Notes: a model not told the origin generated them from the sequence alone. A DNA stretch of 47,783 bases from a virus (IMGVR_UViG_3300001201_000001:1-47783); one strand, 5' to 3'; shown: positions 1,308-15,527, counted from the first letter of the stretch. A program made the numbers and translations.

Positions 1308-1319
1308 GTCGAATTGATT
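1308..1319 (-). promoter_or_regulatory. start-proximal box AATCAATTCGAC
   Basis: + strand GTCGAATTGATT; 0 nt spacer to ATG 1307. Confidence 0.7.
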
Positions 1320-1460
1320 TTTTTGGTGATGTCTTTCGCTGGTTTCTTATCCGTCGAAAGTGCGCTCGTGCTTCCCGATTCCGGCGGCGGTGGGCTCGGT
1401 ATTGAATCCATTCCCGCCGCAGGTAACTGGCCAGCACGAGCGCGATGATGATGGCCACCA

Positions 1461-1937
1461 TTAAGCCTCCGCCGTTTTCTTCGCGGCAACGGTTCCAGTC
1501 GCGGTGGATTTCTTCGGACGGCCGACCTTTTTGACGACGGCACCGCCATCGGGTTCGCCGGGATCCTGCGGCGTTCCTCCCTTAGCGGCGTTTTTCATTT
1601 CGTCGATTTGGTCGAGGAGGTTGGTTTGGCCTTCGCCTTTCGCGATGTCTTCGCCAGCATTTTCGCGGCGGCGGCGGTCAACGTCAGCGAATAGCACGTC
1701 GCAGCATTTGTCGAATGTTTCCATGTACGCCTCCCGAAGTTCGGCGCGGTCGGCTTCCACGTCATTCAACATGGAGGAGGTGACCTTCAACGAGAAGGAA
1801 CCGTTGGGGGCGGCCTTGCTTCCGCCGAAGGTCATCGGACCGGTGATAAACTTTTCCTTGCCTTGGATTTCGAGCGGCGTATTGATTGCCCGGCGTTCCT
1901 GCTCTTTGGTGATTTGAATGTCGAAGTTGTTGGACAT
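1461..1937 (-). CDS. hypothetical protein with a basic AT-hook-like C-terminal tail
   Basis: Start moved to ATG 1937; the ORF-track TTG 2027 extension runs through the leader. 158 aa with a GRPKK motif near the C-terminus. Confidence 0.7.
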   Translation of the reverse strand: MSNNFDIQITKEQERRAINTPLEIQGKEKFITGPMTFGGSKAAPNGSFSLKVTSSMLNDVEADRAELREAYMETFDKCCDVLFADVDRRRRENAGEDIAKGEGQTNLLDQIDEMKNAAKGGTPQDPGEPDGGAVVKKVGRPKKSTATGTVAAKKTAEA

Positions 1938-2001
1938 TGGTGAATTGGTTAAAAAGGATGAATGAAATGACCCGGCCAGCGTGGTCGGATCGGAGTGATT
2001 T

Positions 2002-2253
2002 TTATTGGTCGTCTTCGATTTTTTCAACGTAGTTGTCGGTGATCGTGTCGATTTGACTTTTTACCGCCATTCGGACGATGTAGGTAGTCACGCCATAAGC
2101 AACCCACCAGGGCGCGAACCAAACAAATATCGCGGTGAAGTAAAACGCGGTGGACGAGGCTCCGGATGCCAAAGCCAGGAGGGTCATCGTTATCGGCCAA
2201 TCATCAAAGGCGCGGCGTATCGCGGCTTTTCGTTGTGGTGTCTCGGTAGGCAT
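2002..2253 (-). CDS. small membrane protein with 2 TM helices (holin-like topology, function unknown)
   Basis: 83 aa from ATG 2253, which is preceded by the box. Hydrophobic segments ITMTLLALASGASSTAFYFTAIF and FAPWWVAYGVTTYIV, followed by a charged C-terminus. Confidence 0.65.
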   Translation of the reverse strand: MPTETPQRKAAIRRAFDDWPITMTLLALASGASSTAFYFTAIFVWFAPWWVAYGVTTYIVRMAVKSQIDTITDNYVEKIEDDQ

Positions 2254-2257
2254 TGTT

Positions 2258-2269
2258 GTCGAATTGATT
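2258..2269 (-). promoter_or_regulatory. start-proximal box AATCAATTCGAC
   Basis: GTCGAATTGATT on + strand; 4 nt spacer to ATG 2253. Confidence 0.7.
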
Positions 2270-2276
2270 GAAGTGA

Positions 2277-3020
2277 TTAAAGTAATTCCATCTGCGTCCC
2301 CTTGGTCATCCGGTTCTGCGCGATGTTGAAGTAGTGCGTTGATAATTCCCAGCCGATGTAGGTGAACCCCATCGCGGCCGCGCAACGGATCGACGCGCCG
2401 TAACCGACGAAAGGGTCGCAGATAACCGTCTCGGGTTTCCCGCTGGTGTAGTCCCGGTATAGGGATTTGTAAAGTGCTGGCGGCTTTTCGTTGGGGTGTT
2501 GAATTTGGGCGGGGTGGACGCGGGTGGTTCGTATGACGCTGAACGGGCGCTTGCCTTCAAATTCGTACCGGCCTTTGGTGCAGTAGAGTATCAGTTCGTG
2601 CTGCGGTGCCGGGCATCCCTTCAAGTCTCCCATCCCGTGTAGGTTCTTATCCCATACAATCTCGTAAACCAGGGTGAAGCCAGCGGCGCGGGCGGCGGCT
2701 TGGAAGACGGCCGCAACATCCCAACGGTAAAAGATGAACAGGCGACCGCCAGGCTTTAGGATTCGGTAGGCTTCATCAAGCCATCCGACGAACGGCGCGT
2801 CGTCGTTCAGTATCTTCTCCAACGGTCCCCGGTTGCACCGGTGGTTACTTTGGAAGTCGATCCCATAAGGCGGGTCGACGGGCATCAAGTCTACGGAATC
2901 GGATGGAATTGACGGAAGACCAACGACGGGGTCAAGGCAGTCCGCGTTGATAAATTTACTTTTCACGGCGGGCGCGTTTAATTTCTGCCAGGCCGACTGC
3001 AGTGGTGGCGTTGGTAGCAA
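2277..3020 (-). CDS. DNA methyltransferase, beta-class N6-adenine/N4-cytosine (N6_N4_Mtase family), orphan
   Basis: DPPYG (motif IV) precedes FVGYGAS (motif I, FxGxG) near the C-terminus. No restriction enzyme nearby. An in-frame GTG at 2966 would cut the overlap with the upstream gene from 65 to 11 nt. Confidence 0.8.
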   Translation of the reverse strand: MLPTPPLQSAWQKLNAPAVKSKFINADCLDPVVGLPSIPSDSVDLMPVDPPYGIDFQSNHRCNRGPLEKILNDDAPFVGWLDEAYRILKPGGRLFIFYRWDVAAVFQAAARAAGFTLVYEIVWDKNLHGMGDLKGCPAPQHELILYCTKGRYEFEGKRPFSVIRTTRVHPAQIQHPNEKPPALYKSLYRDYTSGKPETVICDPFVGYGASIRCAAAMGFTYIGWELSTHYFNIAQNRMTKGTQMELL

Positions 3021-3321
3021 TGACGGGAATCCCCAAATCGAGGGCGAGGTTGGCTTCGATAATCATTCCGGCGCTAACGGTGTGGCCATAGAGCCGGATG
3101 ATGTCCACCGCTCCGGACTTGATCAGCGCTTCGTTGTTAGCCATCCCCCGGGCGCGTTGTTTGGGGTCGTCATCATCAAGGACGCGAAGGTCTACGAGGT
3201 AAGGGGCAAACGGGACGACGTGCGGCTCGGTCGTGTTGACCTGGCGGACGATAGCCTCGACGCGCTTGATGTTGGCGGAAACGTCCCCGCCGATGGGGTG
3301 TGCGATGTAAGCGATTAACAT
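2956..3321 (-). CDS. possible nucleoside 2-deoxyribosyltransferase-like (DUF4406-like) protein
   Basis: 121 aa. N-terminal YIAHPIGGD and C-terminal VSAGMIIEANLALDLGIPV resemble the Rossmann-like deoxyribosyltransferase/Rcl fold with a catalytic Glu. Confidence 0.45.
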   Translation of the reverse strand: MLIAYIAHPIGGDVSANIKRVEAIVRQVNTTEPHVVPFAPYLVDLRVLDDDDPKQRARGMANNEALIKSGAVDIIRLYGHTVSAGMIIEANLALDLGIPVIATNATTAVGLAEIKRARREK

Positions 3322-3325
3322 GATT

Positions 3326-3613
3326 CTATTTTTTTGCCTGTTTGTCCGAGATTCGCTTCCAATCAGGCGAAAACGCTAAAGCCGTTTCCTCCGTCACGCA
3401 ATGCGGCGCAGCCCTTTTAAACAATTCACCCTCGAAGGACGACCACCCGCCGTCTTTTCTTCTTTCCGTTTCGTATTCTTCGGAGGATAATGGTCGGAAA
3501 GTGTCACCAGTCCTAGCCAGTATTTTCATGATGTTCTGCGCGATGACTTCGACTTCGTTTTTTTGTTCGAGGCTATTCATCGGAAACCTGTTTTTAAAAT
3601 CAGATGGTGTCAT
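3326..3613 (-). CDS. hypothetical protein
   Basis: 95-aa ORF; ATG 3613 is preceded by a one-mismatch copy of the box. Confidence 0.7.
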   Translation of the reverse strand: MTPSDFKNRFPMNSLEQKNEVEVIAQNIMKILARTGDTFRPLSSEEYETERRKDGGWSSFEGELFKRAAPHCVTEETALAFSPDWKRISDKQAKK

Positions 3614-3617
3614 AATT

Positions 3618-3629
3618 GTCGAATTTATT
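3618..3629 (-). promoter_or_regulatory. start-proximal box, variant AATAAATTCGAC
   Basis: GTCGAATTTATT on + strand; 4 nt spacer to ATG 3613. Confidence 0.55.
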
Positions 3630-3637
3630 GAGTTTGA

Positions 3638-4609
3638 TTATTCACCGGCTTCCCGGCGTGTTTGTAGATCGGCCTGGCTCTTGATGTGGTTGGCCATCAG
3701 TTCCGCCGCGTCCTTGGTGTTGATGAAGGTGTCGGATTCCATTCGGACGTTCGGGCGGGCCGACCGTTCAAACGGGTCACCCTTCGCGGCCAGGTGGTCG
3801 TTGTAGATTTTGTTGGCCGACCATTCGCTGCGGTCGTCAAACATTGTGGAGAACATCGTGTACAAAGTCGCGTAGTCGATGTTAAAAGTTCGGTTGGTCG
3901 CGGTGTCCTGACCGCTTGCCAGGTTGAGGACCATCTTCACCTGAGCCAACGTCAGGCTGGGGAAGTCCTTGATGATCGCCGCCGCCAGTTCCCGAACCAA
4001 CGCCGGGGTGATGTCCGACCGCTTCCCGAACTTCAACAGGAACAACTCGACCATCTTGGCAATCAATGCCTCGGCCTTGGTGTCGCCTTTGTAGGCACGA
4101 AGGGAAACCATCGTCACCGACCGGAAGCGTTCACAGTCTTCCCACGTTCGCGGGCGGATGGAAGTATCGAAGGCGAACTCTTTGGCTTCGTAAGCGGCAA
4201 GCGCCGGGCCGATGTCGAAGCGTTGCCGTCCGATGATCCCCCGAAGGCGCTCGAGGTCTTCGTCGTCAGCTTCGGCAACCAACGCGCCAAACCGATAAAA
4301 GAACTGGGAATCGATTCCCATCATCCGCTTCCGGTTCGGGGTCATCTTTTCGGTGGTGACCGTCTTGGTGATGATCGCGCCAGGCTTGCCGTCTTCATCG
4401 ACTTCACGCATCGGAACCATCAACGGCTTGCCAAGGATTCCAACCCGGGGGTTTCCGTCTTCATCCAGCGGGGTGTGTAGAACAGGCTCCTCCTTTTCCG
4501 TGGTGATCGTTCCGGCGTGGCCGCGAAGATGTTCCAAGATGTCCCGGCCACGTTGCGGGACTTCGGCCAAGGTAAGCGGCTGGTCGTATGCGGTTAATTG
4601 CTGGCTCAT
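3638..4609 (-). CDS. hypothetical protein of the replication module
   Basis: 323-aa ORF starting 3 nt after the stop of the initiator gene; no motif recognised. Confidence 0.75.
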   Translation of the reverse strand: MSQQLTAYDQPLTLAEVPQRGRDILEHLRGHAGTITTEKEEPVLHTPLDEDGNPRVGILGKPLMVPMREVDEDGKPGAIITKTVTTEKMTPNRKRMMGIDSQFFYRFGALVAEADDEDLERLRGIIGRQRFDIGPALAAYEAKEFAFDTSIRPRTWEDCERFRSVTMVSLRAYKGDTKAEALIAKMVELFLLKFGKRSDITPALVRELAAAIIKDFPSLTLAQVKMVLNLASGQDTATNRTFNIDYATLYTMFSTMFDDRSEWSANKIYNDHLAAKGDPFERSARPNVRMESDTFINTKDAAELMANHIKSQADLQTRREAGE

Positions 4610-4611
4610 GA

Positions 4612-5583: not shown

Positions 5584-5611
5584 TTGAAGTAGATAAATTT
5601 CATGATTGTTG

Positions 5612-5664
5612 TTTGTAAAATTGAAGAACCCGCAGCGAACGGGTGAGAGCGTTCGTGCGGGTTC
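5612..5664 (-). terminator. rho-independent terminator candidate
   Basis: Stem GAACCCGCA/TGCGGGTTC (5626-5634/5656-5664) plus inner stem CGAACG/CGTTCG, followed on the coding strand by TTCAATTTTAC. It lies downstream of the 5775..6263 gene. Confidence 0.6.
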
Positions 5665-5774
5665 GTGGGTTTGGTAGCCACCCAGGTCGTGCAAGCCTCT
5701 CACCGCTTGGACGATCTGTATCGTGACACGAATATAGTCCTAAGACCGGACCCGCGCAAGACGTAGCGGCTTTT

Positions 5775-6263
5775 TTAAAAGTAGACGACTTCGCCACCTT
5801 CACCCGGCCAGGGGATTTTTGCGCCCGTGTATTGGATCACCCAACGGTGGGCGCGGTCCATCATCGCGCTGAAGTCGTGGCGTTTCATCGCCGAAGACTT
5901 CACGGTTGGGTCAAGATATTCGACGGCCATCGGTTCGCCGTCTTCGCCGTAGATGTACCGGGCATCTTTCCCCCACACCAACTCGAGCAGACCGTAGTGA
6001 AGATCCAGCCGGTGTTTGTAATCTTCCGGGTGAAGATGATCCCAGCCGAGGTGATGGTGAAGGATTTCGGCAAGGAACGGGATGAACGTCCCCATCCAGT
6101 ACCCGTTTTGGGACTTGGACCGAAGGGTGTCGGACCGCATCGCCACCAGCGTCACCGGCTGGCCTTTGAATTGGTCGTTGATCGTTTCGATCATTCCCTC
6201 CGGCCATTGGTGAACGTTGTCGGTTTTGTTCCATACCCCGGTGAAGTAGATACGTTTAGCCAT
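5775..6263 (-). CDS. hypothetical protein, weak NinB/Orf-like recombination-mediator signature
   Basis: 162 aa; LRSKSQNGYWMG resembles the RSxxQNxxxW motif of lambda NinB-type proteins. Confidence 0.4.
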   Translation of the reverse strand: MAKRIYFTGVWNKTDNVHQWPEGMIETINDQFKGQPVTLVAMRSDTLRSKSQNGYWMGTFIPFLAEILHHHLGWDHLHPEDYKHRLDLHYGLLELVWGKDARYIYGEDGEPMAVEYLDPTVKSSAMKRHDFSAMMDRAHRWVIQYTGAKIPWPGEGGEVVYF

Positions 6264-6267
6264 TGGT

Positions 6268-6627
6268 TCAAAAAGGTAAGTCGTCGTTCATGTCTTCCAT
6301 CGTGACCGGTGTTTGTCCTGGTATCAATCGAAGACGAACAAGGCGCAGAATGTATTTTGTCAACCAAGGCCCGTCGGGGTTGATGTCCGGGTATTCATCT
6401 TTATCCCATTTGAACGCGACCTCGTACCAAACCCCGGAGGTCTTCGCTAATTGGATAAGGTCGTCGTCAAGTTCAACGGCTGTGAACATCGCCTCGGACA
6501 TCAGTTCAAATACTTCGGGACCAATGCCCCAACGTTGAAGAACATCGGTGACAATCATCCCTTTGTGATTCCAAAGGGCGAGGCCGCTTTCTTGTCTTGG
6601 TTCTAAAAATATGTTTGCTACTATCAT
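6268..6627 (-). CDS. hypothetical protein
   Basis: 119-aa ORF; ATG 6627 is preceded by the box. Confidence 0.7.
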   Translation of the reverse strand: MIVANIFLEPRQESGLALWNHKGMIVTDVLQRWGIGPEVFELMSEAMFTAVELDDDLIQLAKTSGVWYEVAFKWDKDEYPDINPDGPWLTKYILRLVRLRLIPGQTPVTMEDMNDDLPF

Positions 6628-6631: not shown

Positions 6632-6643
6632 GTCGAATTGATG
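6632..6643 (-). promoter_or_regulatory. start-proximal box (TTCACCCCC)ATCAATTCGAC
   Basis: GTCGAATTGATG on + strand; 4 nt spacer to ATG 6627. Confidence 0.7.
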
Positions 6644-6652
6644 GGGGTGAAT

Positions 6653-7662: not shown

Positions 7663-7674
7663 GTCGAATTGATT
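7663..7674 (-). promoter_or_regulatory. start-proximal box AATCAATTCGAC
   Basis: GTCGAATTGATT on + strand; 4 nt spacer to ATG 7658. Confidence 0.7.
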
Positions 7675-7685: not shown

Positions 7686-8456
7686 TTACGCGGGAACGGG
7701 TTCGCCCCAGCGCTTTAGTTTGGCGGCTTCGATGTTGGCGGTGATTTCTTCCAACCTGGCCACCGCTTCCTCGAGTCGGCCTTCCATCTGTTTGATGAAC
7801 GGCTCGTCGCGGGGGATCAACATCCAGGCGATGCGGTCGCGGGGGTCATCAAAGTCCGGGTGATAGGAAAAGAACAGGGTCGCGTCGGTTTCGGCTACCC
7901 AGCACTGGTGTTGCGTTTGCAGCCAGTATTTGTGTTCGATTTTTTTCAGGTCGTCCGGCTTTTGCATTTCTAGGAATTGCGTGTGGACGTTCGGCATATA
8001 GGGCGCTTTGCCTTCGACGGTGTAGTTCATGGAACGAATCAAGCCGTCCGGCGTGGAGCCGTGGTAGTCGCCACGAAGTAGGAATTCCTGGTCGTCACCG
8101 TAGTCGGTCACATCGTAGCCAGTCATTTCAATCAGTATCTTCATCGCCGGGACTTCGTGACGATGGCCCCAGGCCATTTCTTTCGTCGTCACCCGGGGTA
8201 TCTTCGCGCCCTTCCGTTGGGCTATCTTCTTTCGGATGTAGGTATCGGCACCCTTGGCGTAAGAGTTGCCCAGCTTCGTGGTGAAGAACGGGGAAATGGC
8301 GGAAGACGTGAAGCGGCCGCGCCGTTTCTCTCGCCATTCGGCCTCGCGTTCTGCGCGTATTCGGGCCAGCGATGCGGCGGCGAAGGCTTGCGGGTTGTCC
8401 GCCATAGCCTCCGCCGTCGTCATCAGTTGGAACCCGTTAAGGTTTTCCAATGCCAT
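7686..8456 (-). CDS. YqaJ-like (lambda Exo-type, PD-(D/E)XK) recombination exonuclease
   Basis: 256 aa with RRGRFTSS, WGHRHEVPA, STPDG, EGKAP and YWLQTQHQ motifs in the YqaJ order. Confidence 0.75.
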   Translation of the reverse strand: MALENLNGFQLMTTAEAMADNPQAFAAASLARIRAEREAEWREKRRGRFTSSAISPFFTTKLGNSYAKGADTYIRKKIAQRKGAKIPRVTTKEMAWGHRHEVPAMKILIEMTGYDVTDYGDDQEFLLRGDYHGSTPDGLIRSMNYTVEGKAPYMPNVHTQFLEMQKPDDLKKIEHKYWLQTQHQCWVAETDATLFFSYHPDFDDPRDRIAWMLIPRDEPFIKQMEGRLEEAVARLEEITANIEAAKLKRWGEPVPA

Positions 8457-9044: not shown

Positions 9045-9056
9045 ATCGAATTGATT
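9045..9056 (-). promoter_or_regulatory. start-proximal box AATCAATTCGAT
   Basis: ATCGAATTGATT on + strand; 0 nt spacer to ATG 9044. Confidence 0.65.
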
Positions 9057-9103: not shown

Positions 9104-9901
9104 TTAGCGATGGCAAAAAACGCCACAGCTTTTCTGTTCTTCGCCGCTGTCGTAAAATTCAGACAGATCGCCGATTAGGTTCATTTTTTCAGTCGCTATG
9201 AATTGCCGAAGGGGGGGCATATTCGACCGGATTCGGTAGTACTTGTTTCGGTTGTCTTGAATGTATTCCTCAAGGGCTTGGACCTCTTGAATTTCATCCA
9301 GTGCCAGGTGAACCATTGCCGCGAATTCTTTCTTGCTTTTGAACGGGCAATACTTACAACCGCCCCGGCTCATGTATGCCGGAAAGTCGGGAAGCAATCC
9401 AAGCGGCTCGAGTAATTCCTTGCAATCTTCGCGGTCGAGTTCGTCTTCAACTAGCGGATACTTGTAGGCGATGTTCTTCCCCATTTCAAGGTTTCCGATT
9501 CGGTCTTCGTCTTCGTCAGCGTTCAAACCGATCAACAAATCGCACTCACCTTGCCGTTGCAGGAATAGGTCGATGGGGATCACTTTGAAAAGCGCGGTGC
9601 AAAATCTTCGCCGAGCGGATGGCATAAACTTTCGGTAGATAATGTAGTCCGTCAGGTTGTCAACTTTTTCCGTTCCGACCGTTACGTTGGCTTTAATCTT
9701 GACCAGTTTGAAGTCGCCGTCGTGGTATTCGGTCAGCATCTTCTCGACGTATTCCAGGCGTTCATACATTCGATCATGCTCCCCGCCAGTATCGCAAAAG
9801 ATAGCGGTCGCGCCTTTTCCGTAAAGGACACACATCGCGGTGGATTCTACACCTCCGGAGAAACTGATAAACTTCGGCCTTGCGTCGTTACTGGTCTTCA
9901 C
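9104..9901 (-). CDS. PAPS-reductase-like / DndC-like PP-loop ATP pyrophosphatase
   Basis: The GTG 9901 start overlaps the TGA of the upstream gene (GTGA). PP-loop SFSGGVEST and C-terminal Cys pairs CKYC and CGVFC. The ORF-track extension to 10267 overlaps the 9898..10203 gene and looks non-coding. Confidence 0.7.
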   Translation of the reverse strand: MKTSNDARPKFISFSGGVESTAMCVLYGKGATAIFCDTGGEHDRMYERLEYVEKMLTEYHDGDFKLVKIKANVTVGTEKVDNLTDYIIYRKFMPSARRRFCTALFKVIPIDLFLQRQGECDLLIGLNADEDEDRIGNLEMGKNIAYKYPLVEDELDREDCKELLEPLGLLPDFPAYMSRGGCKYCPFKSKKEFAAMVHLALDEIQEVQALEEYIQDNRNKYYRIRSNMPPLRQFIATEKMNLIGDLSEFYDSGEEQKSCGVFCHR

Positions 9902-10236: not shown

Positions 10237-10713
10237 CTATTCGGCGGATGGTTCCACTATCGGCCAAACAAAGGCGGAAGTGTTGCCATGTTCGGCGCGG
10301 TGTTTACGAAGCGCGGTAGCGGCGGACCAACCGGCATCGGTCAGGGTGACGTGGCCATAGTTTTCCGTTGCCTGGGCGCTGTTCTTTTGGTGAAGGATGT
10401 CCCCGGATTCCATCGGTTCGTGTTCGTGGATCGTCAGAAAACCAGCCTCGGCCAAGTCCTGGACACAATCCCAGTCGTCGTGCTTTAGCTGTTCACCGCC
10501 GTCCCGGAGTCGTGTTCCGTACTTGTCACCAAACCCCGCGCCGAGACGACGGGAGGCAAGCCGCCAGTTGTGTCGGTGAGTTCGCATATGGGGGTTCGGG
10601 GAAAGTTTGAACCGGCCGGTGTCGGTGACTTTGGTTTCAACGTATAGAAACGTGGTCCGGTGATCTTTGCCGAACTGGTCGGGCTTGATGAAGTTGGGGG
10701 AAGGGTGTGACAT
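10237..10713 (-). CDS. hypothetical protein (possible winged-helix segment)
   Basis: 158-aa ORF; DWDCVQDLAEAGFLTI..VTLTDAG is wHTH-like; weak. Confidence 0.65.
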   Translation of the reverse strand: MSHPSPNFIKPDQFGKDHRTTFLYVETKVTDTGRFKLSPNPHMRTHRHNWRLASRRLGAGFGDKYGTRLRDGGEQLKHDDWDCVQDLAEAGFLTIHEHEPMESGDILHQKNSAQATENYGHVTLTDAGWSAATALRKHRAEHGNTSAFVWPIVEPSAE

Positions 10714-10717
10714 CGTT

Positions 10718-10729
10718 GTCGAATTGATG
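10718..10729 (-). promoter_or_regulatory. start-proximal box (ATCACCCCC)ATCAATTCGAC
   Basis: GTCGAATTGATG on + strand; 4 nt spacer to ATG 10713. Confidence 0.7.
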
Positions 10730-10752
10730 GGGGTGATAATGATGGGTGTGGT

Positions 10753-11109: not shown

Positions 11110-11112
11110 GGT

Positions 11113-11124
11113 GTCGAATTGAAA
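11113..11124 (-). promoter_or_regulatory. start-proximal box (TTCATCC)TTTCAATTCGAC
   Basis: GTCGAATTGAAA on + strand; 3 nt spacer to ATG 11109. Confidence 0.7.
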
Positions 11125-11132
11125 AGGATGAA

Positions 11133-11156
11133 GGGGCCGACCGATTGACCGGCCCC
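11133..11156 (-). terminator. GC-rich hairpin (terminator-like, poor U tract)
   Basis: Stem GGGGCCG/CGGCCCC (11133-11139/11150-11156), followed on the coding strand by TTCATCCTTTTC. Confidence 0.45.
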
Positions 11157-11164
11157 GGATTGGT

Positions 11165-11437
11165 TTAGTTGTTGTGATAGTCTTCGTAGCCGTCCCAGTC
11201 GTCATCTTCCGGCGACGCTTGGAACTCGATGGCTTCGATGATCTCCTCGTCGGTCGGTGCCAGTTCGCCGGACACCAGGGACACGTCAAGGATTTCGATT
11301 TCGTCACCGGTGTCACATTCATCCGGCCGACCGTACTGGTCAGTAGATGCCGGATGTCCGGCGGTGAAGTTGTACTCGACGAAGACGATGGATTCGGTGT
11401 CTTCGATTTCGATGGCTAGTTCGGCGGTGTGATACAT
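11165..11437 (-). CDS. very acidic small protein (DNA-mimic / anti-restriction candidate)
   Basis: 90 aa from ATG 11437, with 27 Asp+Glu against 1 Arg and 0 Lys; lies in the early block. Confidence 0.6.
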   Translation of the reverse strand: MYHTAELAIEIEDTESIVFVEYNFTAGHPASTDQYGRPDECDTGDEIEILDVSLVSGELAPTDEEIIEAIEFQASPEDDDWDGYEDYHNN

Positions 11438-11441
11438 GGGG

Positions 11442-11453
11442 GTCGAATTGATG
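11442..11453 (-). promoter_or_regulatory. start-proximal box (ATCACCCCC)ATCAATTCGAC
   Basis: GTCGAATTGATG on + strand; 4 nt spacer to ATG 11437. Confidence 0.7.
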
Positions 11454-11481
11454 GGGGTGATGAAGATGGAAGCGGGCCGAA

Positions 11482-11688
11482 TTATTCGGCGGGGCAAGGA
11501 GCGCCAAGGGTGGCCAGGACGAACATCGTCACCTCTTCGCCAAAGACTTCATCCATTTCGGCGATGCCGTAGGTCATGGTTTCTTTTCCCCAACGTTCGG
11601 TACAAAGGAGGACGAAGTTGGTGCCATCGGTGAAGATGCAGGTGGTGTGTTCGTTGATCTTTACGGCGGGGATTGAAGTGGCAGTCAT
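11482..11688 (-). CDS. hypothetical protein
   Basis: 68 aa from ATG 11688; preceded by repeat cassette R1. Confidence 0.6.
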   Translation of the reverse strand: MTATSIPAVKINEHTTCIFTDGTNFVLLCTERWGKETMTYGIAEMDEVFGEEVTMFVLATLGAPCPAE

Positions 11689-11819
11689 GGTTGTCGAATT
11701 GATTGGGACGGTGTCCCGTTGTTGATGCTTCAAAGATACACCCCGCAGGGGTAACGAGCAAGTGTTGCGGGGGTATTCGTTCTTTTTAGTGGGGGTTGTG
11801 CGTAAACTTTAACTTTTGG
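11689..11819 (-). repeat. non-coding cassette R1 (promoter plus conserved leader); paralog of 12806..12938
   Basis: 120 of 134 aligned positions are identical to R2 (hand alignment), including a 29-nt identical block GGGGGTTGTGCGTAAACTTTAACTTTTGG. Confidence 0.85.
11693..11704 (-). promoter_or_regulatory. start-proximal box AATCAATTCGAC (inside R1)
   Basis: GTCGAATTGATT on + strand; 4 nt spacer to ATG 11688. Confidence 0.7.
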
Positions 11820-11823
11820 CACG

Positions 11824-11857
11824 AAAAAAGCGCCCCCGGACGTGTTGCCGGGGGCGC
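11824..11857 (-). terminator. rho-independent terminator
   Basis: 10-bp stem GCGCCCCCGG/CCGGGGGCGC (11830-11839/11848-11857), followed on the coding strand by TTTTTT. It lies 32 nt downstream of the 11889 stop. Confidence 0.8.
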
Positions 11858-11888
11858 TTCGGTGAGGCTGGTGATAGGTCGGTCGGGA

Positions 11889-12413
11889 CTAAAACGGAAT
11901 GTCGTTGTAGTTGTCGGCCGTTGATTTGATGGCCAGCGCGACGTGGTCCGGGAATTGCTTCACCAGTTCCGGCGATTCGATCACTTCGATGATTTCAAAG
12001 CACTCCTCGAGGTTAGGGTGGCTGGTGTTCATCGGCACGACGTAGTGCGCGGCGGTGGTGCCTTCGGTCTTTCGGTCGCAGTAGAAACCGACGAAGGGAT
12101 GGCCAGCAGGTGCGGTGGCCACCACAATCGTCCCGGGGATGATCTTGACGGTAGTGGTCGGCGTGGACCAGTTGCGGTGAAGGGAAAGGGTCGGAAGCGG
12201 ATGAAGCCCGGCAACTTCGACACCAGTAACCCAAAACGTCGGGTCGGAGTACTGTCCCCGGTCGTCATCAAAGGCGGGGAAGTTTACGGTAACAATTCCG
12301 AGTTCGGGATGGTCAGCGTTCGGCGCGACATCGGTGACTTCACCCTCGCCGTATTGTTGGGCGTAGACGGTCGTGCCGACTTGGAAGGGGTGGGGGAAAT
12401 TAGTGGAAGACAT
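11889..12413 (-). CDS. hypothetical protein
   Basis: 174-aa ORF; ATG 12413 is preceded by the box. Confidence 0.7.
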   Translation of the reverse strand: MSSTNFPHPFQVGTTVYAQQYGEGEVTDVAPNADHPELGIVTVNFPAFDDDRGQYSDPTFWVTGVEVAGLHPLPTLSLHRNWSTPTTTVKIIPGTIVVATAPAGHPFVGFYCDRKTEGTTAAHYVVPMNTSHPNLEECFEIIEVIESPELVKQFPDHVALAIKSTADNYNDIPF

Positions 12414-12418
12414 AAAGG

Positions 12419-12430
12419 GTCGAATTGAAA
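12419..12430 (-). promoter_or_regulatory. start-proximal box (TTCATCC)TTTCAATTCGAC
   Basis: GTCGAATTGAAA on + strand; 5 nt spacer to ATG 12413. Confidence 0.7.
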
Positions 12431-12438
12431 AGGATGAA

Positions 12439-12466
12439 GCGCCGGGCGAAGTCGATCACCCGGCGC
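12439..12466 (-). terminator. GC-rich hairpin (terminator-like, poor U tract)
   Basis: 8-bp stem GCGCCGGG/CCCGGCGC (12439-12446/12459-12466), followed by TTCATCCTTTTC on the coding strand. Confidence 0.5.
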
Positions 12467-12481
12467 GGATGATGTTGATGA

Positions 12482-12805
12482 TTAAACCAGGCGGGCGGCG
12501 GCGAAGGAACGGTAACCGTTGGCGGCGCGGTCGAAGTAGCGAACGTACAGCGGGCTGTAGTTGCCGCCGGTTCCTTTCGGACGCTTATCGGCCGGGATGG
12601 TTTCGATGTCGGTGGTTCCGGTCGCGGGGCGAAGGCTTCCGTCTTTCTTGATGTAGGTGAAGGACACCTCGCCGGTGGCCAGTTGCGCCTTTAGCTTGAT
12701 GACTTTCCAAGCGCGGCGGAAGGCGGCGGATAAGTCGAGGCCGGTTTTGCGAAGTGCCTGGGCTAAGGTGGCGACGGCGGAGCGGATTTGGTTGGGCGTT
12801 TTCAT
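12482..12805 (-). CDS. DUF2693-like (SH3-barrel) phage protein
   Basis: 107 aa from ATG 12805; FTYIKKDGSLRPATGT..YVRYFD..GYRSF resembles the DUF2693 family common in Bacteroidota phages and elements. Confidence 0.5.
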   Translation of the reverse strand: MKTPNQIRSAVATLAQALRKTGLDLSAAFRRAWKVIKLKAQLATGEVSFTYIKKDGSLRPATGTTDIETIPADKRPKGTGGNYSPLYVRYFDRAANGYRSFAAARLV

Positions 12806-12938
12806 GGTTGTCGAATTGATTGGTACGGTGTCCCGTTGTTGTTGATGCTTCAAAGATACGCCCCGCAAGGGTAACGCGCAAGCGTTTCGGGGGTCATCAT
12901 TCTTTTAATGGGGGTTGTGCGTAAACTTTAACTTTTGG
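12806..12938 (-). repeat. non-coding cassette R2 (promoter plus conserved leader); paralog of 11689..11819
   Basis: See R1. The genes downstream of the two copies show no recognisable sequence similarity. Confidence 0.85.
12810..12821 (-). promoter_or_regulatory. start-proximal box AATCAATTCGAC (inside R2)
   Basis: GTCGAATTGATT on + strand; 4 nt spacer to ATG 12805. Confidence 0.7.
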
Positions 12939-12943
12939 ACCAC

Positions 12944-12976
12944 AAAAAAAGCCGCGACACCTTGCGGAATCGCGGC
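12944..12976 (-). terminator. rho-independent terminator
   Basis: Stem GCCGCGA/TCGCGGC (12951-12957/12970-12976), followed by TTTTTTT on the coding strand; downstream of the 13005 stop. Confidence 0.75.
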
Positions 12977-13004
12977 CTCGATGGGTCAGTATAAACTTAG
13001 GGGT

Positions 13005-13589
13005 TTACAAGACCGACCCGTTTCGGTGACTGGTGAAGAACAAATTCACATAGTCAAGGTCCGGCGCGTTCTCCCGTAAGTACGCCAGCCATTCGTGGTT
13101 TGCTTCCCCCGCCTTCGTGAAGACCGTGGCCTCGTATGCCTCTTGCGTTTCGTTTACGTTGCCGGTCTTCGGGTCGCGGAAGTAGAACGATTCGATGGGG
13201 ATCGTCTTTTTTTCTTCCCCGTGTGGTTGGAGGTAATACTTGTTGGAAGCGTCGGCCAATTTCGCCTCGATGTCTTGGACGGTCTTTCGGACCAGCCTGG
13301 CCGGGACGAAGTGAAAAACGACACCGGACAAATGCTCCGGGATGTCGTCTTTTATCCGTCGTCCTTTTTGTCCCCAGTCGGCCACGACAATCGCCTGGAC
13401 TTGTTGGCCATAATCCACCCGGGACAAACGGACATCATACCAAAGGGAAAAGACGGAACAGGCCAACCCAACACAACAGACGACGAGGACAACGGTGGAC
13501 CAGTCGTCCGTCTTGGTGTGGGTGATGTAACCAGCGATGCCGGTGATGGTCCAGGAGACGTAGTGCCAGGGGTTAAACGAAGTCATCAT
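13005..13589 (-). CDS. membrane protein (2 N-terminal TM helices plus a soluble C-terminal domain)
   Basis: 194 aa; hydrophobic segments VSWTITGIAGYI and VVLVVCCVGLACSVFSLW. Confidence 0.7.
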   Translation of the reverse strand: MMTSFNPWHYVSWTITGIAGYITHTKTDDWSTVVLVVCCVGLACSVFSLWYDVRLSRVDYGQQVQAIVVADWGQKGRRIKDDIPEHLSGVVFHFVPARLVRKTVQDIEAKLADASNKYYLQPHGEEKKTIPIESFYFRDPKTGNVNETQEAYEATVFTKAGEANHEWLAYLRENAPDLDYVNLFFTSHRNGSVL

Positions 13590-14094
13590 AACGGCGGTGC
13601 TTTGTGTGGGTGTGATAAGCGAAGGCGGCGGTCGCGCTGAAGCTGGCCATGAAGATCAAGGCGTAACCCCAGGGCGCTGATGCCTTGATGAAGGTGGCGA
13701 AGTCGATCAAGACCACGTAAAGGAAATAGATGATCACCGACGCGACCGCCATGCCGATGATGATGATGGCCGCGTAGCCAACGTTGTCCCAGTCGATGGG
13801 TTCGCGTTCCGGTTCCGGCGGTTGCGGTGCGGGGATGGTGATATACTGGTGAACGGTTGGGGCTTGCGGCGCGGCGTGAACGATAACCGGGCCAGGGGTG
13901 GCCATCGCCGTCGGCATCCCGGCCCCCGTCTTCATCTTTACGCGGCGAACTATTCCGTCTTCGTAAGATGTCAACCCTTCCCCGTTAACGTACTTATTCC
14001 AAGCGTCGTATTCCTCTTCCGTTAGCTTGGCACCGCGCCCCCCTATGACGGCGGGGTCGATGTATCGGGTGGTATAATATGAACCGTCTCGCAT
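13573..14094 (-). CDS. membrane protein (soluble N-terminus, Pro-rich linker, C-terminal TM helices)
   Basis: 173 aa; GYAAIIIIGMAVASVIIYFLYVVLI and WGYALIFMASFSATAAFAY; 17-nt overlap with the next gene. Confidence 0.7.
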   Translation of the reverse strand: MRDGSYYTTRYIDPAVIGGRGAKLTEEEYDAWNKYVNGEGLTSYEDGIVRRVKMKTGAGMPTAMATPGPVIVHAAPQAPTVHQYITIPAPQPPEPEREPIDWDNVGYAAIIIIGMAVASVIIYFLYVVLIDFATFIKASAPWGYALIFMASFSATAAFAYHTHTKHRRYDDFV

Positions 14095-14148
14095 GGTGGT
14101 AAAATTTTAAAATTTAAAGTGGATGGCCTCCCCTACCCTTCATCCTTG

Positions 14149-14538
14149 TTAAAGGTCAAAGTCAATAAATACGGGGCTTTTTTGCCCCCCTTCCCCCAGT
14201 AGGGGAGGGGTTTGGGGGTCTTCTCCGTTGGTTTCAGGGGGTCTTGCGATGGTGGTCTTTTTCTCCCCGTTTCGGTAGTGTATCACCAGCCCGCCGCCAT
14301 CCTGTTCTTTTCCGTATTCTACCTCTTCCCACTCCCCCGGCTCGACCGGTCCGGTCTTTACCCGCTGGCGGGGCTTCGGGGGGGGTGTTGTTGCGGATCG
14401 GATTTCTTTCGGGTGGTCACCATCGTCATCATCATCCAAGGGCAGAATGTATTCCGCCGCGTCAAGTTCCGGGATGTAGATGAAGCCGCACCAATATCCG
14501 ATTTCGATGGCGATGCTTCGGAGCCAGTCGTAGAACAT
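14149..14538 (-). CDS. hypothetical protein (hydrophobic N-terminus, acidic and Pro-rich)
   Basis: 129-aa ORF; TAATG overlap with the upstream gene at 14536-14540. Confidence 0.65.
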   Translation of the reverse strand: MFYDWLRSIAIEIGYWCGFIYIPELDAAEYILPLDDDDDGDHPKEIRSATTPPPKPRQRVKTGPVEPGEWEEVEYGKEQDGGGLVIHYRNGEKKTTIARPPETNGEDPQTPPLLGEGGQKSPVFIDFDL

Positions 14539-15425
14539 TAGCGGATTTCTTGACGGATGACGGTCAGGATTGCGGAAGGGACGAAGACGAGGCCGATGAT
14601 TTCAGCGCCGCAACCGATGAAGGACCAGCCCGGGAAAAGTAGAACGCCGTGGATCGTTAACTGGTAGGCACCGAAGACGAAGGCGAATAAGTTGGCCCCT
14701 TCGTCGTCCTTGTTTCGGATGAAGTTCACGAACCCGGATAGTCCGACAATGATGCCAACAACGCCGAACGCGATGGCCGAACCCGTCCGAATGGCTTCGG
14801 GTTTGTCGTCCAAATGCGTCCACCAGTTAAGACAACAGGCAACGAAATCGGCCAAAAGCACGACGGACAAACCGACCATGATGACCGTCCGACCGGCAAC
14901 GATGTCGGCCAAGGGCTTCACCTTTTTCGGTTCGGCGTGAGTGGCCAATCGCGTTTGTTCCTTTTTCGCCTTCGTCTTTTTGGCTTTGAACTTCGGGTCA
15001 GGATCAACGGCCGGGTGGATGATCGCGGGATGGGATGGGATGTAGATCGTCTCCTCGCCTTGGTCGTGCGTATGCTTTGGGAACGTTCCCGCGACTTTCT
15101 TGGCTGCCCCCCCGAAGTCCTTCGCGGCTTCGGTCAGGGTGGCCATCGCGTCGGATGCGGCCGCGTCTGCTTTGGCGTAATTCATGGAAGCGCGAACCTC
15201 CTCCGGCGTTGGCCATCCCATGACGGACGCGATGGTTTCGGTGTAGGGGTCTTTCACCCCGCGCTGAACGGTGGCCGGATCCACCCCGGCGGCGGTCCAA
15301 TCTTCGGGTTTGCGCTCGAGGCTGTACTTGATGGCTTGCGCCAGTTGTTTCGGATTTCGTCCGGGTTTGTCCGTCCGCAGACCGACGAGACGCGCTGCGT
15401 CTTTGATGGTAATGGTGGGAATCAT
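14538..15425 (-). CDS. membrane-anchored protein: N-terminal HTH-like segment plus 4 C-terminal TM helices
   Basis: 295 aa. The N-terminus TIKDAARLVGL resembles MerR/excisionase-type HTH starts. The C-terminal ~120 aa carry four hydrophobic helices. Confidence 0.6.
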   Translation of the reverse strand: MIPTITIKDAARLVGLRTDKPGRNPKQLAQAIKYSLERKPEDWTAAGVDPATVQRGVKDPYTETIASVMGWPTPEEVRASMNYAKADAAASDAMATLTEAAKDFGGAAKKVAGTFPKHTHDQGEETIYIPSHPAIIHPAVDPDPKFKAKKTKAKKEQTRLATHAEPKKVKPLADIVAGRTVIMVGLSVVLLADFVACCLNWWTHLDDKPEAIRTGSAIAFGVVGIIVGLSGFVNFIRNKDDEGANLFAFVFGAYQLTIHGVLLFPGWSFIGCGAEIIGLVFVPSAILTVIRQEIR

Positions 15426-15427
15426 TG

Positions 15428-15439
15428 TCGAATTGATTT
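15428..15439 (-). promoter_or_regulatory. start-proximal box AATCAATTCGAC
   Basis: GTCGAATTGATT on + strand; 2 nt spacer to ATG 15425. Confidence 0.7.
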
Positions 15440-15515
15440 TGTCCTATGTTGATACAAAACTAAGGTTTTCGGACGAAAGTGGAAAACATTCAATCAATTC
15501 CGGTAGATTTGACCC

Positions 15516-15527
15516 GTCGAATTGATG
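15516..15527 (-). promoter_or_regulatory. orphan copy of the box, partner of an inverted repeat
   Basis: GTCGAATTGATG. GAATTGAT (15519-15526) is the inverted repeat of ATCAATTC (15493-15500). No long ORF follows, only a 9-codon mini-ORF (15460-15489). Confidence 0.5.

Follow-up and report, generated by a model that had tools for sequence, protein, structure and literature searches.

A conserved box at the start codons of 13 non-structural genes of a siphovirus, most likely a shared translation switch

In the window, a stretch of 47,783 nucleotides that represents a complete siphovirus of 47.7 kb, 13 non-structural genes are preceded by a repeated box directly in front of their start codons, and this box is most likely a shared translation switch for these genes. 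The sequence TCAATTCGA occurs in 14 exact copies, every one on the coding strand and in a single orientation (TCGAATTGA in the plus-strand form), while shuffled sequences contain on average 0.68 copies and at most 2. The initial annotation had reported at least 13 copies in one orientation, and 13 of the 14 are indeed located within 1309-15525. The fourteenth, which had been missed, is placed within a tail gene at 26804-26812; this single intragenic copy is not conserved in the related phage discussed below and is therefore probably due to chance. No copy was found on the opposite strand.

Twelve exact copies and one copy with a single mismatch lie in intergenic gaps that measure 23-256 nt, each 0-5 nt before an ATG. 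The exact copies precede the ATGs that had been annotated earlier, with spacings of 0 (two copies), 1, 3, 4 (seven copies) and 5 nt, and the mismatched copy 4 nt before ATG 3613 and an orphan copy at 15516-15527 were also located as described. Under a model in which each box is free to sit anywhere within its own intergenic gap, the probability that all 13 fall 0-5 nt from the ATG is P ~1e-12. All boxed genes begin with ATG, the boxes span about -14 to -5 relative to the AUG, and the spacers between box and ATG are unrelated to each other in sequence. The consensus is 5'-(A/U)(U)CAAUUCGA(C/U)-3', and the copies are the following:

15516-15527, minus strand: orphan copy without a start codon
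15427..15436, minus strand: box TCAATTCGAC, 1 nt before ATG 15425, which opens the first gene (295 aa, no assigned function) behind promoter P1; the relative is identical (100%) from TTAGTTTTG up to the ATG
12810..12819, minus strand: box 4 nt before ATG 12805, the first gene behind P2 (12482-12805, a small WYL_2 / Sm-like beta-barrel protein)
12419..12428, minus strand: box 5 nt before ATG 12413, with a strong hairpin (12439-12466, -25.8 kcal/mol, z -4.9) and a TTCATCC box upstream; the relative carries two additional boxed genes inserted at this junction
11693..11702, minus strand: box 4 nt before ATG 11688, the first gene behind P3
11442..11451, minus strand: box 4 nt before ATG 11437, with ATCACCCCC directly 5'
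11113..11122, minus strand: box 3 nt before ATG 11109, with a hairpin (11133-11156) and a TTCATCC box upstream
10718..10727, minus strand: box 4 nt before ATG 10713, in a gap of 39 nt
9045..9054, minus strand: box variant ending in CGAT, 0 nt before ATG 9044; variant and spacing are both identical in the relative
7663..7672, minus strand: box 4 nt before ATG 7658 (dATP/dGTP pyrophosphohydrolase), in an intercistronic gap of 27 nt
6632..6641, minus strand: box 4 nt before ATG 6627, in a gap of 25 nt; retained in the relative in front of an unrelated replacement gene
3618..3627, minus strand: one-mismatch box TAAATTCGAC, 4 nt before ATG 3613, in a gap of 24 nt; a consensus box in the relative
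2258..2267, minus strand: box 4 nt before ATG 2253, in a gap of 23 nt
1308..1317, minus strand: box 0 nt before ATG 1307

The comparison with a related phage that the initial annotation had proposed shows that the core of the box is under strong purifying selection. The two genomes, which are the only carriers of the box, share ~78% nucleotide identity, and across 12 orthologous pairs the core CAATTCGAY has 1 substitution in 108 positions, compared to 7 of 24 (29%) in the 2 nt 5' of the core and 101 of 240 (42%) in the 20 nt upstream (P ~7e-11 for the core at a background rate of 22%). The single variant is a C to U change at the last position, and the A positions are no more constant than those with C, U or G. 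The spacing distribution in the relative matches that of the window, with a peak at 4 nt, and the copies with spacings of 0 and 1 nt are conserved in both phages. The box is also kept where the downstream gene has been replaced or inserted, and the insertions, deletions and replacements that separate the two phages start at, or no more than ~12 nt from, the box or start codon. The parts of 44-60% relatives that were sampled contain no box-like repeat, and a Croceibacter phage has no comparable repeat.

The structural proteins match those of phages of Bacteroidota only, suggesting a Bacteroidota-type host. An SD-like 4-mer at -20 to -4 is present in only 1 of 50 genes, in line with the earlier statement that the genome has no Shine-Dalgarno (SD) sequences, and this absence is explained by the host lineage, as SD sequences are not used by the ribosomes of Bacteroidota (PMC7797042). 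The initiation regions of the non-box genes are A-rich and G-poor. Known initiation determinants in Bacteroidia are single adenines, of which those at -6 and -12 act positively in F. johnsoniae (PMC6847099); at its modal spacing the box places an A on both of these positions, and an A is frequent at -3. Three of the box copies follow, at a distance of 25-38 nt, predicted promoters of the Bacteroidia type (TAnnTTTG, in the forms TTG-N20-TATCTTTG and TAGTTTTG), which in turn lie behind intrinsic terminators:

15607..15644, minus strand: intrinsic terminator (hairpin and T-run) before the P1 region, at the end of the upstream operon
15455..15462, minus strand: -7 box TAGTTTTG of P1, with a predicted leader of ~25 nt that contains the box
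12944..12979, minus strand: intrinsic terminator (hairpin and T7) ahead of P2
12851..12882, minus strand: P2, TTG-N20-TATCTTTG, with the spacer palindrome ACCCTTGCGGGG and a predicted leader of ~40 nt in which a short hairpin (12822-12835) is followed by the box
11824..11857, minus strand: intrinsic terminator (hairpin and T6) ahead of P3
11731..11762, minus strand: P3, a duplicate of the P2 module, with a leader hairpin (11705-11717) followed by the box

P2 and P3 arose by recent duplication of a ~130-nt module. In four aligned copies the order is terminator, TTG-N20-TATCTTTG, leader hairpin, box and ATG, and the stems of the leader hairpins differ in sequence between the phages with preserved pairing. 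Another four box copies occupy gaps of 23-27 nt directly 3' of the upstream stop codon, and both box and AUG are predicted to be unpaired in 13/13 start-adjacent copies. The upstream promoters, the copies in the short gaps and the predicted lack of pairing all suggest that the box is not the promoter, but an element of the mRNA at the ribosome-binding position, and we consider it probable that it acts at initiation.

Being placed in 5' leaders and intercistronic spacers, such a start-associated mRNA element would cover the stretch that the 30S subunit must occupy, which is the place of the SD sequence in other bacteria. The initial annotation had offered an SD-independent initiation element and the common operator of a repressor or RNA-processing factor as two of its readings. 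An mRNA element in the initiation region is supported, and the interpretation as a whole is supported in part. A class-specific operator fits better than a general enhancer, because highly expressed structural genes and the sampled parts of more distant relatives have no such box, and its 9-nt core shows practically no variation. In this view, a single trans-acting factor with sequence specificity would control the whole gene class through the box as a shared translational operator. The leading candidate for this factor is a putative phage RNA of ~88 nt, encoded on the strand opposite the orphan copy. The orphan had been listed as an oddity, but it may encode the trans-acting partner. The single-stranded 5' end GUCGAAUUGAU of the candidate RNA would be the exact complement of the box, and a duplex of 9-12 bp immediately in front of the AUG could keep ribosomes from loading or target the mRNA for cleavage, resulting in a coordinated shut-off or dosing of genes for replication, recombination and nucleotide metabolism. 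Both the action on translation and repression as its direction are what we infer from this arrangement, and the complete statement, a start-associated operator read by a small RNA, falls somewhat short of an even chance. As an analogue, the start-associated sequence (SAS/ESAS) of cluster K mycobacteriophages comes closest to the box. The features proposed for the small RNA are:

15504..15511, plus strand: Bacteroidia-type -7 box TAGATTTG upstream of G15516
15516..15603, plus strand: putative small RNA of ~88 nt, deduced from the sequence
15562..15603, plus strand: hairpin GCCCGCG...CGCGGGC followed by UUUGCUUUUGG, intrinsic-terminator-like

Nucleotides 1-11 of the putative RNA are the reverse complement of the orphan copy. 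In the predicted fold, nucleotides 1-7 are single-stranded and followed by two stem-loops, with an MFE of -38 kcal/mol and a z of about -2 in both phages. The predicted duplexes between seed and target have energies of -12 to -19 kcal/mol at the 13 boxed starts and -7.7 kcal/mol or weaker at all other starts, which separates the targets cleanly from the rest. However, this complementarity is automatic because the candidate derives from the reverse strand of one of the boxes, and what truly supports the RNA is a single -7 box together with one terminator-like hairpin and one compensatory pair. The distance from TAGATTTG to G15516, the first anti-box base, is 4 nt in the window and 5 nt in the relative, which agrees with transcription starting 4-5 nt after the -7 box in Bacteroidia (PMC6847099). 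The hairpin reads GGCCGCG...CGCGGCC in the relative, a compensatory change from C-G to G-C, and is followed by a U-tract in the plus orientation only. The conservation of the mRNA stops exactly at the predicted first base of the putative RNA, that of the RNA 5' end stops at nucleotide 11, which is the length of the box, and the C to U variant of the core could still form a G.U pair with nucleotide 1. A short ORF in the putative RNA has no conserved start (ATG versus ATC). A precedent is the Bacteroides sRNA GibS, which targets translation-initiation regions with a single-stranded 5' seed, and canonical Bacteroides sRNAs have a mapped start and an intrinsic terminator (PMC7366714).

Several observations speak against the small RNA. 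The TAGATTTG box has a G at the first variable position, in conflict with the refined consensus TAHHTTTG, and lacks a clear -33 element. A second plus-strand TAnnTTTG at 6610-6617, 14 nt from another box copy, is not conserved, which indicates that chance -7 boxes near the copies do occur. The sequence CAAAAG..AAAG, read here as the U-tract, recurs after the P2 and P3 terminators without a preceding plus-strand hairpin, so that its conservation may have another cause. Alternatively, a DNA operator could be formed by the orphan together with its partial inverted repeat. Moreover, a promoter back-to-back with the early promoter would make the RNA present early, and a simple late shut-off is then less obvious. 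The small RNA as partner of the box is proposed tentatively.

The same mRNA operator may instead be read by a protein, such as a translational repressor or activator, or a sequence-specific endoribonuclease, of phage or host, similar to T4 RegA or RegB acting on early mRNAs. All evidence for a start-coupled, class-specific mRNA element applies equally here, an invariant 9-mer suits a sequence-specific protein, the early gene 12482-12805 has a fold used in nucleic-acid binding, and about 25 early proteins are unannotated. We nevertheless consider it unlikely, as RegA, RegB, KH, S1, RRM or other RNA-binding families were not detected among the window's proteins, and a protein alone would not explain the conserved copy without a start codon beside the early promoter, nor the well-spaced -7 box and orientation-specific terminator on the opposite strand. 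Rather less likely is an intrinsic, SD-independent recruitment signal read directly by the host 30S through bS1, the mRNA channel or an exposed rRNA segment. The box does occupy the SD position in a lineage whose ribosomes do not use SD (PMC7797042), it is G-poor and predicted to be unpaired, its adenines are suitably placed, and look-alikes precede some other genes. On the other hand, the most highly expressed genes (capsid, scaffold and tail) have no box, the 44-60% relatives and the Croceibacter phage lack a comparable repeat as sampled, all bases of the core are equally invariant although Bacteroidia determinants are single adenines rather than a 9-nt word (PMC6847099), and the orphan is left unexplained. 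For pairing with 16S rRNA, the only match noted is one of 7 nt, between UCAAUUC and GAAUUGA in the region of E. coli 912-918 (the 907R primer site); this segment is buried, and chance alone would produce a match of such length.

At the DNA level, the boxes could be stoperators, where a phage repressor on an asymmetric 10-mer blocks transcription initiation and elongation depending on orientation. Asymmetric sites with one orientation relative to transcription in short intergenic spaces are the layout of L5-type stoperators in cluster A mycobacteriophages (PMC9283540), two copies flank the early promoter, and an inverted repeat TTCATCAATTC-N19-GAATTGATTGAA upstream of P1, which includes the orphan, is a possible true operator. 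We judge this improbable, since a roadblock would have no need for a distance of 0-5 nt to the ATG where the gap extends to as much as 256 nt, the sites are limited to the non-structural module, and HTH, repressor or integrase genes were not found among the window's genes. The third reading of the initial annotation, a promoter giving leaderless mRNAs, is disfavoured. In this reading host RNA polymerase, together with a phage factor, would recognise the box as a promoter or promoter core and start at or next to the ATG, which we regard as very unlikely. While TCAATTCG fits four of the six near-invariant positions of the -7 box TAnnTTTG, it has mismatches at A-11 and T-6. At spacing 4, a start that follows the 4-5-nt rule (PMC6847099) would fall 1-2 nt before the ATG, each boxed gene starts with ATG, and several copies directly 3' of GC-rich hairpins have a terminator-promoter look, but the conserved copies with spacings of 0 (CGACATG and CGATATG) and 1 would start inside or past the ATG. 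Moreover, a full -7 box is already present 25-38 nt upstream of three copies, conservation is lacking at -33, and the second box described below is positioned relative to the ATG and not to the main box. No gene for an RNA polymerase or sigma factor was found in the window, and leaders shorter than 10 nt make up only about 3.7% in B. thetaiotaomicron (PMC7366714). The least probable explanation is that the box has no role in expression, but is a recombination hot-spot or scar at mobile-cassette borders kept alike by gene conversion. The rearrangements near the boxes and the duplicated P2/P3 module would fit, yet conversion alone does not account for a sharp 9-nt block of identity with 29-42% flanking divergence at 12 loci, nor for the fixed distance to the ATG with unrelated spacers, and cassette shuffling is a known consequence of shared regulatory elements rather than an alternative to them.

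In addition to the proposed translational operator, the initial annotation had described a second box and degenerate versions of the main box. The second box, [AT]TCA[CT]CC, is real in that 11 of its 43 coding-strand copies are intergenic, although intergenic sequence is 6% of the genome, and it begins 22-25 nt before the ATG regardless of the spacing of the main box. It is, however, looser than the main box and lost in the relative at some orthologous sites, and the sequence at 6651 is TTCACCCCC rather than the annotated ATCACCCCC. Its positions are:

6645..6651, minus strand: second box, example, starting 22-25 nt before the ATG
7682, 9069, 10225, 10737, 11132, 11461 and 12438: first positions of further second boxes

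As for the degenerate versions, matches in register at 6 or more of 9 positions, of the form AAAnTnGAC-N4-ATG, precede 9 of 37 non-box genes compared to a background of 9.7%. These versions, annotated earlier in front of the capsid, scaffold and other genes, are marginal, the capsid-gene version is weak and not kept in the relative, and the box is absent from structural genes with intergenic gaps. Such in-register resemblances would suit a graded, ribosome-read signal. A likeness of the box portion TCACCCCC to the anti-SD strand had also been remarked in the initial annotation.

The window contains 14 copies of the 9-mer TCGAATTGA, as compared to a mean of 0.68 and a maximum of 2 copies in dinucleotide shuffles of the window. 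All 14 are on the + strand, which is opposite to the coding strand of all genes. Thirteen of the copies lie within 1309-15525, and one (26804) is found within a tail gene. The coding-strand sequence of the repeat is (A/T)TCAATTCGA(C/T), and in the form (A/T)TCAATTCGAC the box contains a single G and no Shine-Dalgarno (SD)-like 4-mer. It is the most abundant 10-mer of the genome (12 copies), slightly ahead of the simple GC repeat CGCCGCCGCC (10 copies) and of collagen-like coding repeats. Twelve exact copies, and one copy with a single mismatch before the ATG at 3613, end 0-5 nt 5' of a start codon, and all of these starts are ATG. Among the exact copies, the spacing is 0 nt in two cases, 4 nt in seven, and 1, 3 and 5 nt in one case each, with a mode of 4, and the gaps that hold the start-adjacent copies range from 23 to 256 nt. 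If the position within the gap were free, the probability that all 13 fall within 0-5 nt of the ATG would be about 1e-12. The start-adjacent copies are all found at 1.3-15.5 kb, within the non-structural region of the genome. The initial annotation had described a repeated, oriented box before start codons, which is confirmed here at exactly the ATGs that it named. Its concern that the box might be as frequent inside coding regions or on the other strand was not borne out: 14/14 copies have one orientation, and the sole intragenic copy (26803-26812, TTCAATTCGAT, in a tail gene of 729 aa) is not kept in the relative and serves as an internal neutral control.

The close relative, Logan contig SRR26831675_1399 (45.5 kb), has 88% portal identity and ~78% nucleotide identity to the window. 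Its non-structural region contains 10 exact copies of TCAATTCGA and several of CAATTCGA(C/T), all on the coding strand and each 0-5 nt from the ATG that follows, with 4 nt again as the most frequent spacing. Across 12 orthologous pairs, the core CAATTCGAY shows 1 substitution in 108 positions, as compared to 7 of 24 in the two nucleotides 5' of the core and 101 of 240 in the next 20 nt (P ~7e-11 for the core at the genome-wide divergence of 22%). The differences in gene content between the two phages begin at the box. The relative has two extra boxed genes at the junction matching window position 12413 and an unrelated gene behind the box matching 6627, and it lacks the window gene 10713. The conservation of the core and the box-bounded gene differences indicate that the box is under strong selection and that it travels with, or defines, the borders of cassettes.

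No other carriers of the box were found in pattern scans of IMG/VR or among the metagenome matches listed. The IMG/VR patterns (box plus ATG, a 16-mer, box pairs, and promoter plus seed) gave only single chance matches or unrelated coding repeats, and the matches listed for the metagenome box-pair scan were tandem repeats of unrelated organisms, with neither a relative nor the window itself among them. A megablast search of the first 20 kb against GenBank phages gave no match, and neither did a protein-seeded scan of IMG/VR with the PAPS-reductase-like gene; three ~45-kb contigs with PAPS-reductase homologs turned out to be unrelated phages and were set aside. The PAPS-reductase-like gene itself (9104-9877, - strand) is box-less and absent at the same place in the relative, and its ORF call, with an upstream TTG start at 10267, is ~130 codons too long as compared to its homologs. 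As to related phages, in which the initial annotation proposed to search for the box, it is carried by the ~78% relative, but in the sampled parts of the relatives with 44% and 60% portal identity and of Croceibacter phage P2559S no comparable repeated word was found.

The window begins and ends with the same 49 nt (1-49 and 47735-47783), and its two ends adjoin each other in the relative, so that it represents a complete genome of 47,734 bp in a circular assembly. Every gene is located on one strand. The siphovirus genes encode a large terminase, portal, scaffold, major capsid protein, tape measure and a 1907-aa collagen-repeat fibre, while the non-structural module contains a YqaJ exonuclease, a replication initiator, a dATP/dGTP pyrophosphohydrolase, two DNA methyltransferases and many genes of unknown function. 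The fibre protein (17198-22921, - strand) has eight collagen triple-helix stretches and a laminin-G/ConA-like domain, and the 15-mer GGTCCGCAGGGTGAT, which rivals the box in k-mer counts, presumably derives from its collagen-like repeats. The portal and capsid proteins match only Bacteroidota phages (31-40% identity), namely Bacteroides phages B40-8 and B124-14 and phages of Parabacteroides, Alistipes, Croceibacter, Flavobacterium and Elizabethkingia. A portal-alignment scan of genome contigs recovered one gut-MAG locus labelled Acutalibacteraceae (33% identity), which was of no help for the host and was set aside. An SD motif is present for only 1 of 50 genes, and the box-less genes have an A-rich, G-poor region at -16 to -10. 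In the Bacteroidia, the anti-SD is sequestered in the ribosome and upstream adenines are used (PMC7797042, PMC13000457, PMC6847099). Given the matches to Bacteroidota phages and this ribosome biology, the absence of SD sequences is a property of the host lineage and not specific to the phage.

Two intergenic regions of ~200 nt, 13004-12806 and 11888-11689, have the same order of elements: terminator, promoter, short hairpin, box, 4 nt and ATG. The terminators are canonical, with a hairpin plus T6-7, and the promoters, TTG-N20-TATCTTTG, fit the Bacteroidia -33/-7 pattern, in which the -7 box TAnnTTTG is placed 4-5 nt from the transcription start (PMC6847099). These predicted promoters, P2 and P3, belong to a duplicated module of ~130 nt that can be aligned as four copies over the two phages (L123 is the relative).

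Copies of the duplicated ~130-nt promoter module
Window 12806-12940, minus strand: copy with P2, upstream of the boxed ATG 12805
Window 11689-11820, minus strand: copy with P3, upstream of the boxed ATG 11688
L123 about 6190-6320: copy in the relative
L123 about 8175-8305: copy in the relative

The stem sequence of the leader hairpin in this module differs between the phages, but the pairing is kept. A palindrome, ACCCCTGCGGGGT, is placed between the TTG (-33) and TATCTTTG (-7) and may be an operator. Directly after the terminators of the module there is a conserved CAAAAGTTAAAGTTT, and a similar CAAAAGCAAAG follows the terminator of P1, the predicted promoter upstream of ATG 15425. The first start-adjacent copy of the box, at 15427-15436, is located behind TAGTTTTG, and this stretch is 100% conserved in the relative. 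The predicted leaders of 25-40 nt are of normal length for Bacteroidia. Four further copies fill gaps of 23-27 nt that start at the stop codon of the upstream gene, such as TAA-tcacttcaa-TCAATTCGAC-aaca-ATG, and these copies precede internal cistrons.

This arrangement disfavours another proposal of the initial annotation, that the box is a promoter that gives nearly leaderless mRNAs. The box matches the -7 box of sigma-ABfr (T-12, A-11, T-8, T-7, T-6, G-5) at 4 of 6 positions, while full, separate -7 boxes are found 25-38 nt upstream of three copies. The spacing-0 copies are kept in both phages, and no usable leaderless start is possible from them, which is incompatible with a Bacteroidia sigma-ABfr promoter. 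No gene for an RNA polymerase or sigma factor was found in scans of the window proteins, and a sigma-70-type promoter scan of the window remained at the background level. In RNA folds, neither the box nor the AUG is paired at any of the 13 start-adjacent copies, several of which are closely preceded by strong hairpins. Together with the promoter and leader layout and the intercistronic copies, the folds point to an accessible mRNA element at the ribosome-binding position, and the box is probably an mRNA element that acts at initiation. In another part of the genome, at 43867-43880 (- strand), only 3 nt (ggc) separate TATCTTTG from the ATG of an ORF (77 aa, 43869-43636), which is called in the relative as well and may be a genuinely leaderless gene.

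In a comparison with the CCUCC core of the 16S 3' tail, the box shows no complementarity, and it was on this ground rejected as a Shine-Dalgarno site. Since the phage has no SD and the host ribosomes ignore it, the reader of the box cannot be the anti-SD. Pairing of the box with other parts of the 16S rRNA was likewise set aside, as the box is not known to match more than 7 nt there, in a buried segment. Several leaders have a looser second box, (A/T)TCA(C/T)CC, starting 22-25 nt before the ATG, which, if anything, resembles the anti-SD strand. Mimicry of the anti-SD tail by ATCACC was set aside, as 6 nt are shared and the second box is poorly conserved. It is also possible that the box is a general enhancer read by the ribosome. 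The modal spacing places the box adenines at -6 and -12, and weak look-alikes are found in register before 9 of 37 other genes as compared to a background of 9.7%. However, the box is absent before the capsid, scaffold and tail genes, the relative has not kept the weak version of the capsid gene, the non-adenine positions are as invariant as the adenines, and the box is limited to a small clade. These observations favour a dedicated factor, and of the readings in the initial annotation, that of a common operator for a translational repressor or RNA-processing factor is the best supported.

Among the window proteins, no repressor, HTH protein or integrase was matched in Pfam, PHROGs or NCBIfam, searches that remote homologs may escape, and scans for RNA-binding proteins identified only one WYL_2 domain. 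This WYL_2/Sm-like SH3 beta-barrel protein (107 aa; 12482-12805, - strand; PF10902, E 2.6e-17) is encoded by the first gene behind P2 and is conserved in the relative. It is the sole candidate protein, and the only early protein with a nucleic-acid-binding-type fold. The host lineage of this Sm-like protein is one without Hfq.

A candidate RNA partner is suggested by the orphan copy of the box at 15516-15527, which has no start codon. On the + strand, the -7 box TAGATTTG (15504-15511) is located 4 nt before G15516, and 5 nt in the relative due to an indel, so that the spacing in both phages is within the 4-5-nt rule; there is no clear -33 element. The predicted transcript of ~88 nt (15516-15603) would start with GUCGAAUUGAU, which is exactly complementary to the box. 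A hairpin ~45 nt further downstream, GCCCGCG...CGCGGGC, is followed by UUUGCUUUUGG, which can be read as a terminator only in the + orientation, and the sequence of the U-tract recurs after other terminators. The hairpin of the relative is GGCCGCG...CGCGGCC, a compensatory change that amounts to one pair across two sequences. In both phages, the candidate RNA is predicted to fold with nt 1-7 free and two stem-loops, at about -38 kcal/mol (z about -2). The window version contains a short ORF, the start codon of which is absent in the relative, and an Rfam search of the window gave no match. The conservation of the mRNA ends exactly at the base facing nt 1 of the RNA, and the conservation of the RNA 5' end ends at nt 11, which is the length of the box. 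The only variant of the core, a change from C to U that both phages have before gene 9044, still permits a G.U pair. These limits of conservation and the G.U-preserving variant fit with pairing. The predicted seed duplexes range from -12 to -19 kcal/mol at the 13 boxed starts and are -7.7 kcal/mol or weaker at every other start. The complementarity between the box and the RNA is automatic, however, since the RNA locus is itself a copy of the box.

A second + strand TAnnTTTG (TATGTTTG, 6610-6617) is found 14 nt before another copy, inside the first codons of gene 6627. It was set aside, since the relative has a different gene at this place and the motif is not conserved, and it indicates that chance -7 boxes occur near copies of the box. 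The orphan copy, with its partial inverted repeat, could instead be a DNA operator. As to the candidate small RNA, we suggest it only tentatively as the partner of the box, because of the automatic complementarity, because there is a lone -7 box, hairpin and compensatory pair in two genomes, and because of other caveats. If it exists, the ~88-nt RNA would be made divergently from the early promoter, and its 5' seed would pair with the invariant, purpose-built box before 13 phage start codons. Such pairing would place the whole module for replication, recombination and nucleotide metabolism under translational control in one step, in a host that does not initiate through SD sequences. It is rather unlikely that a lytic-type Bacteroidota phage runs a self-targeting small-RNA regulon of this kind, with one RNA for 13 of its own starts. 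Nucleotides 31-38 of the candidate RNA (GGGGGAUG, 15546-15553, + strand) can also pair, with one bulge, with the second box CAUCACCCC, which is placed directly 5' of the main box in several leaders, and GGGGAUGUCAGG is 100% conserved between both phages; as G-rich is matched with C-rich, this pairing may be due to chance.

Several known systems share features with the box. In phage T4, RegA recognises degenerate, AU-rich sites, and RegB cleaves the GGAG of SD sites. Similar to the proposed box system, one factor acts there on many early initiation regions for the shut-off of a class of genes, at sites that overlap with the AUG or border on it with variable spacing. The box differs from the degenerate RegA sites in being an invariant 9-mer, and no homolog of RegA or RegB was found for the window proteins in PHROGs and Pfam. 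PeSL cassettes of T4-type phages combine early promoters with stem-loops. As in the case of the box, these repeated regulatory elements flank small accessory genes and are crossover points for the shuffling of cassettes, but the box is placed downstream of promoters, beside the start codon. The c4 antisense RNA of phages P1 and P7 has two target sites in one operon. Both c4 and GibS, a validated Bacteroides sRNA with a 5' seed directed at initiation regions (PMC7366714), resemble the predicted RNA in having their own promoter, an unpaired 5' seed, stem-loops, an intrinsic terminator and targets at or next to start codons. While GibS has a few host targets and pairs imperfectly, the candidate RNA would face 13 identical sites in the phage's own early genes. 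The stoperators of cluster A mycobacteriophages (L5 gp71) are asymmetric 13-mers, more than 20 in number, that are found in promoters and in short intergenic spaces in an orientation locked to the direction of transcription, and they act on DNA via a monomeric HTH repressor, in temperate phages and in both genome arms (PMC9283540). The box is similarly asymmetric, found at the early promoter and in intergenic spaces, and oriented with transcription. Unlike the stoperators, it is tied to start codons, and an HTH repressor and an integrase were not found in the window scans.

In layout, the box comes closest to the SAS/ESAS system of cluster K mycobacteriophages. The SAS is a 13-mer found in 13-19 copies, which have one orientation and end at a distance of 3-9 nt from the start codon that follows. 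These copies are restricted to the non-structural arm, where the genes behind them are unrelated, and some of them have an upstream module of inverted repeat and promoter; the function of the SAS is still undefined (PMC3203893, PMC11373665, PMC12699233). SAS and the box are both short asymmetric words with at least 10 copies per genome in one orientation, positioned a few nucleotides from the start, with ATG preferred, and they are restricted to the non-structural half and kept before unrelated genes. In both systems a subset has an extended upstream module, the ESAS and the P2/P3 module with its palindrome between -33 and -7, which are analogous in layout but not homologous. Each also has one extra copy without a gene start, which here is accompanied by promoter-like and terminator-like signals on the opposite strand. 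[quoted passage not shown] Having no SD complementarity, in a host lineage that is blind to SD, the box is not a reinforced SD. By this comparison it is SAS-like in its positional features, but not a member of the SAS by sequence.

SAS have been unexplained since 2011, and the SD core inside them confuses the picture. The box provides an independent case, in an unrelated phage without SD and in a host lineage that ignores it, and therefore a clean test bed for the choice and regulation of start codons in Bacteroidia and for the role of start-associated repeats. Elements of this kind are known but have no explanation, and the box is a variant of them; the new part is the candidate anti-box RNA, a specific and testable lead. 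If it turned out instead that the box is by itself a strong signal for initiation, it would be of use as an expression part in Bacteroidota. Cluster K1 mycobacteriophages have a single SAS in reverse orientation, which in Mycobacterium phage Anaya (L268, 39871-39883) follows a terminator, within a non-coding gap of 385 nt. Its transcribed-strand sequence is an anti-SAS, CCUCCUAUCC, placed in the loop of a GCGCGG/CCGCGC hairpin, and by analogy with the orphan copy this might hint at the same logic behind the SAS.
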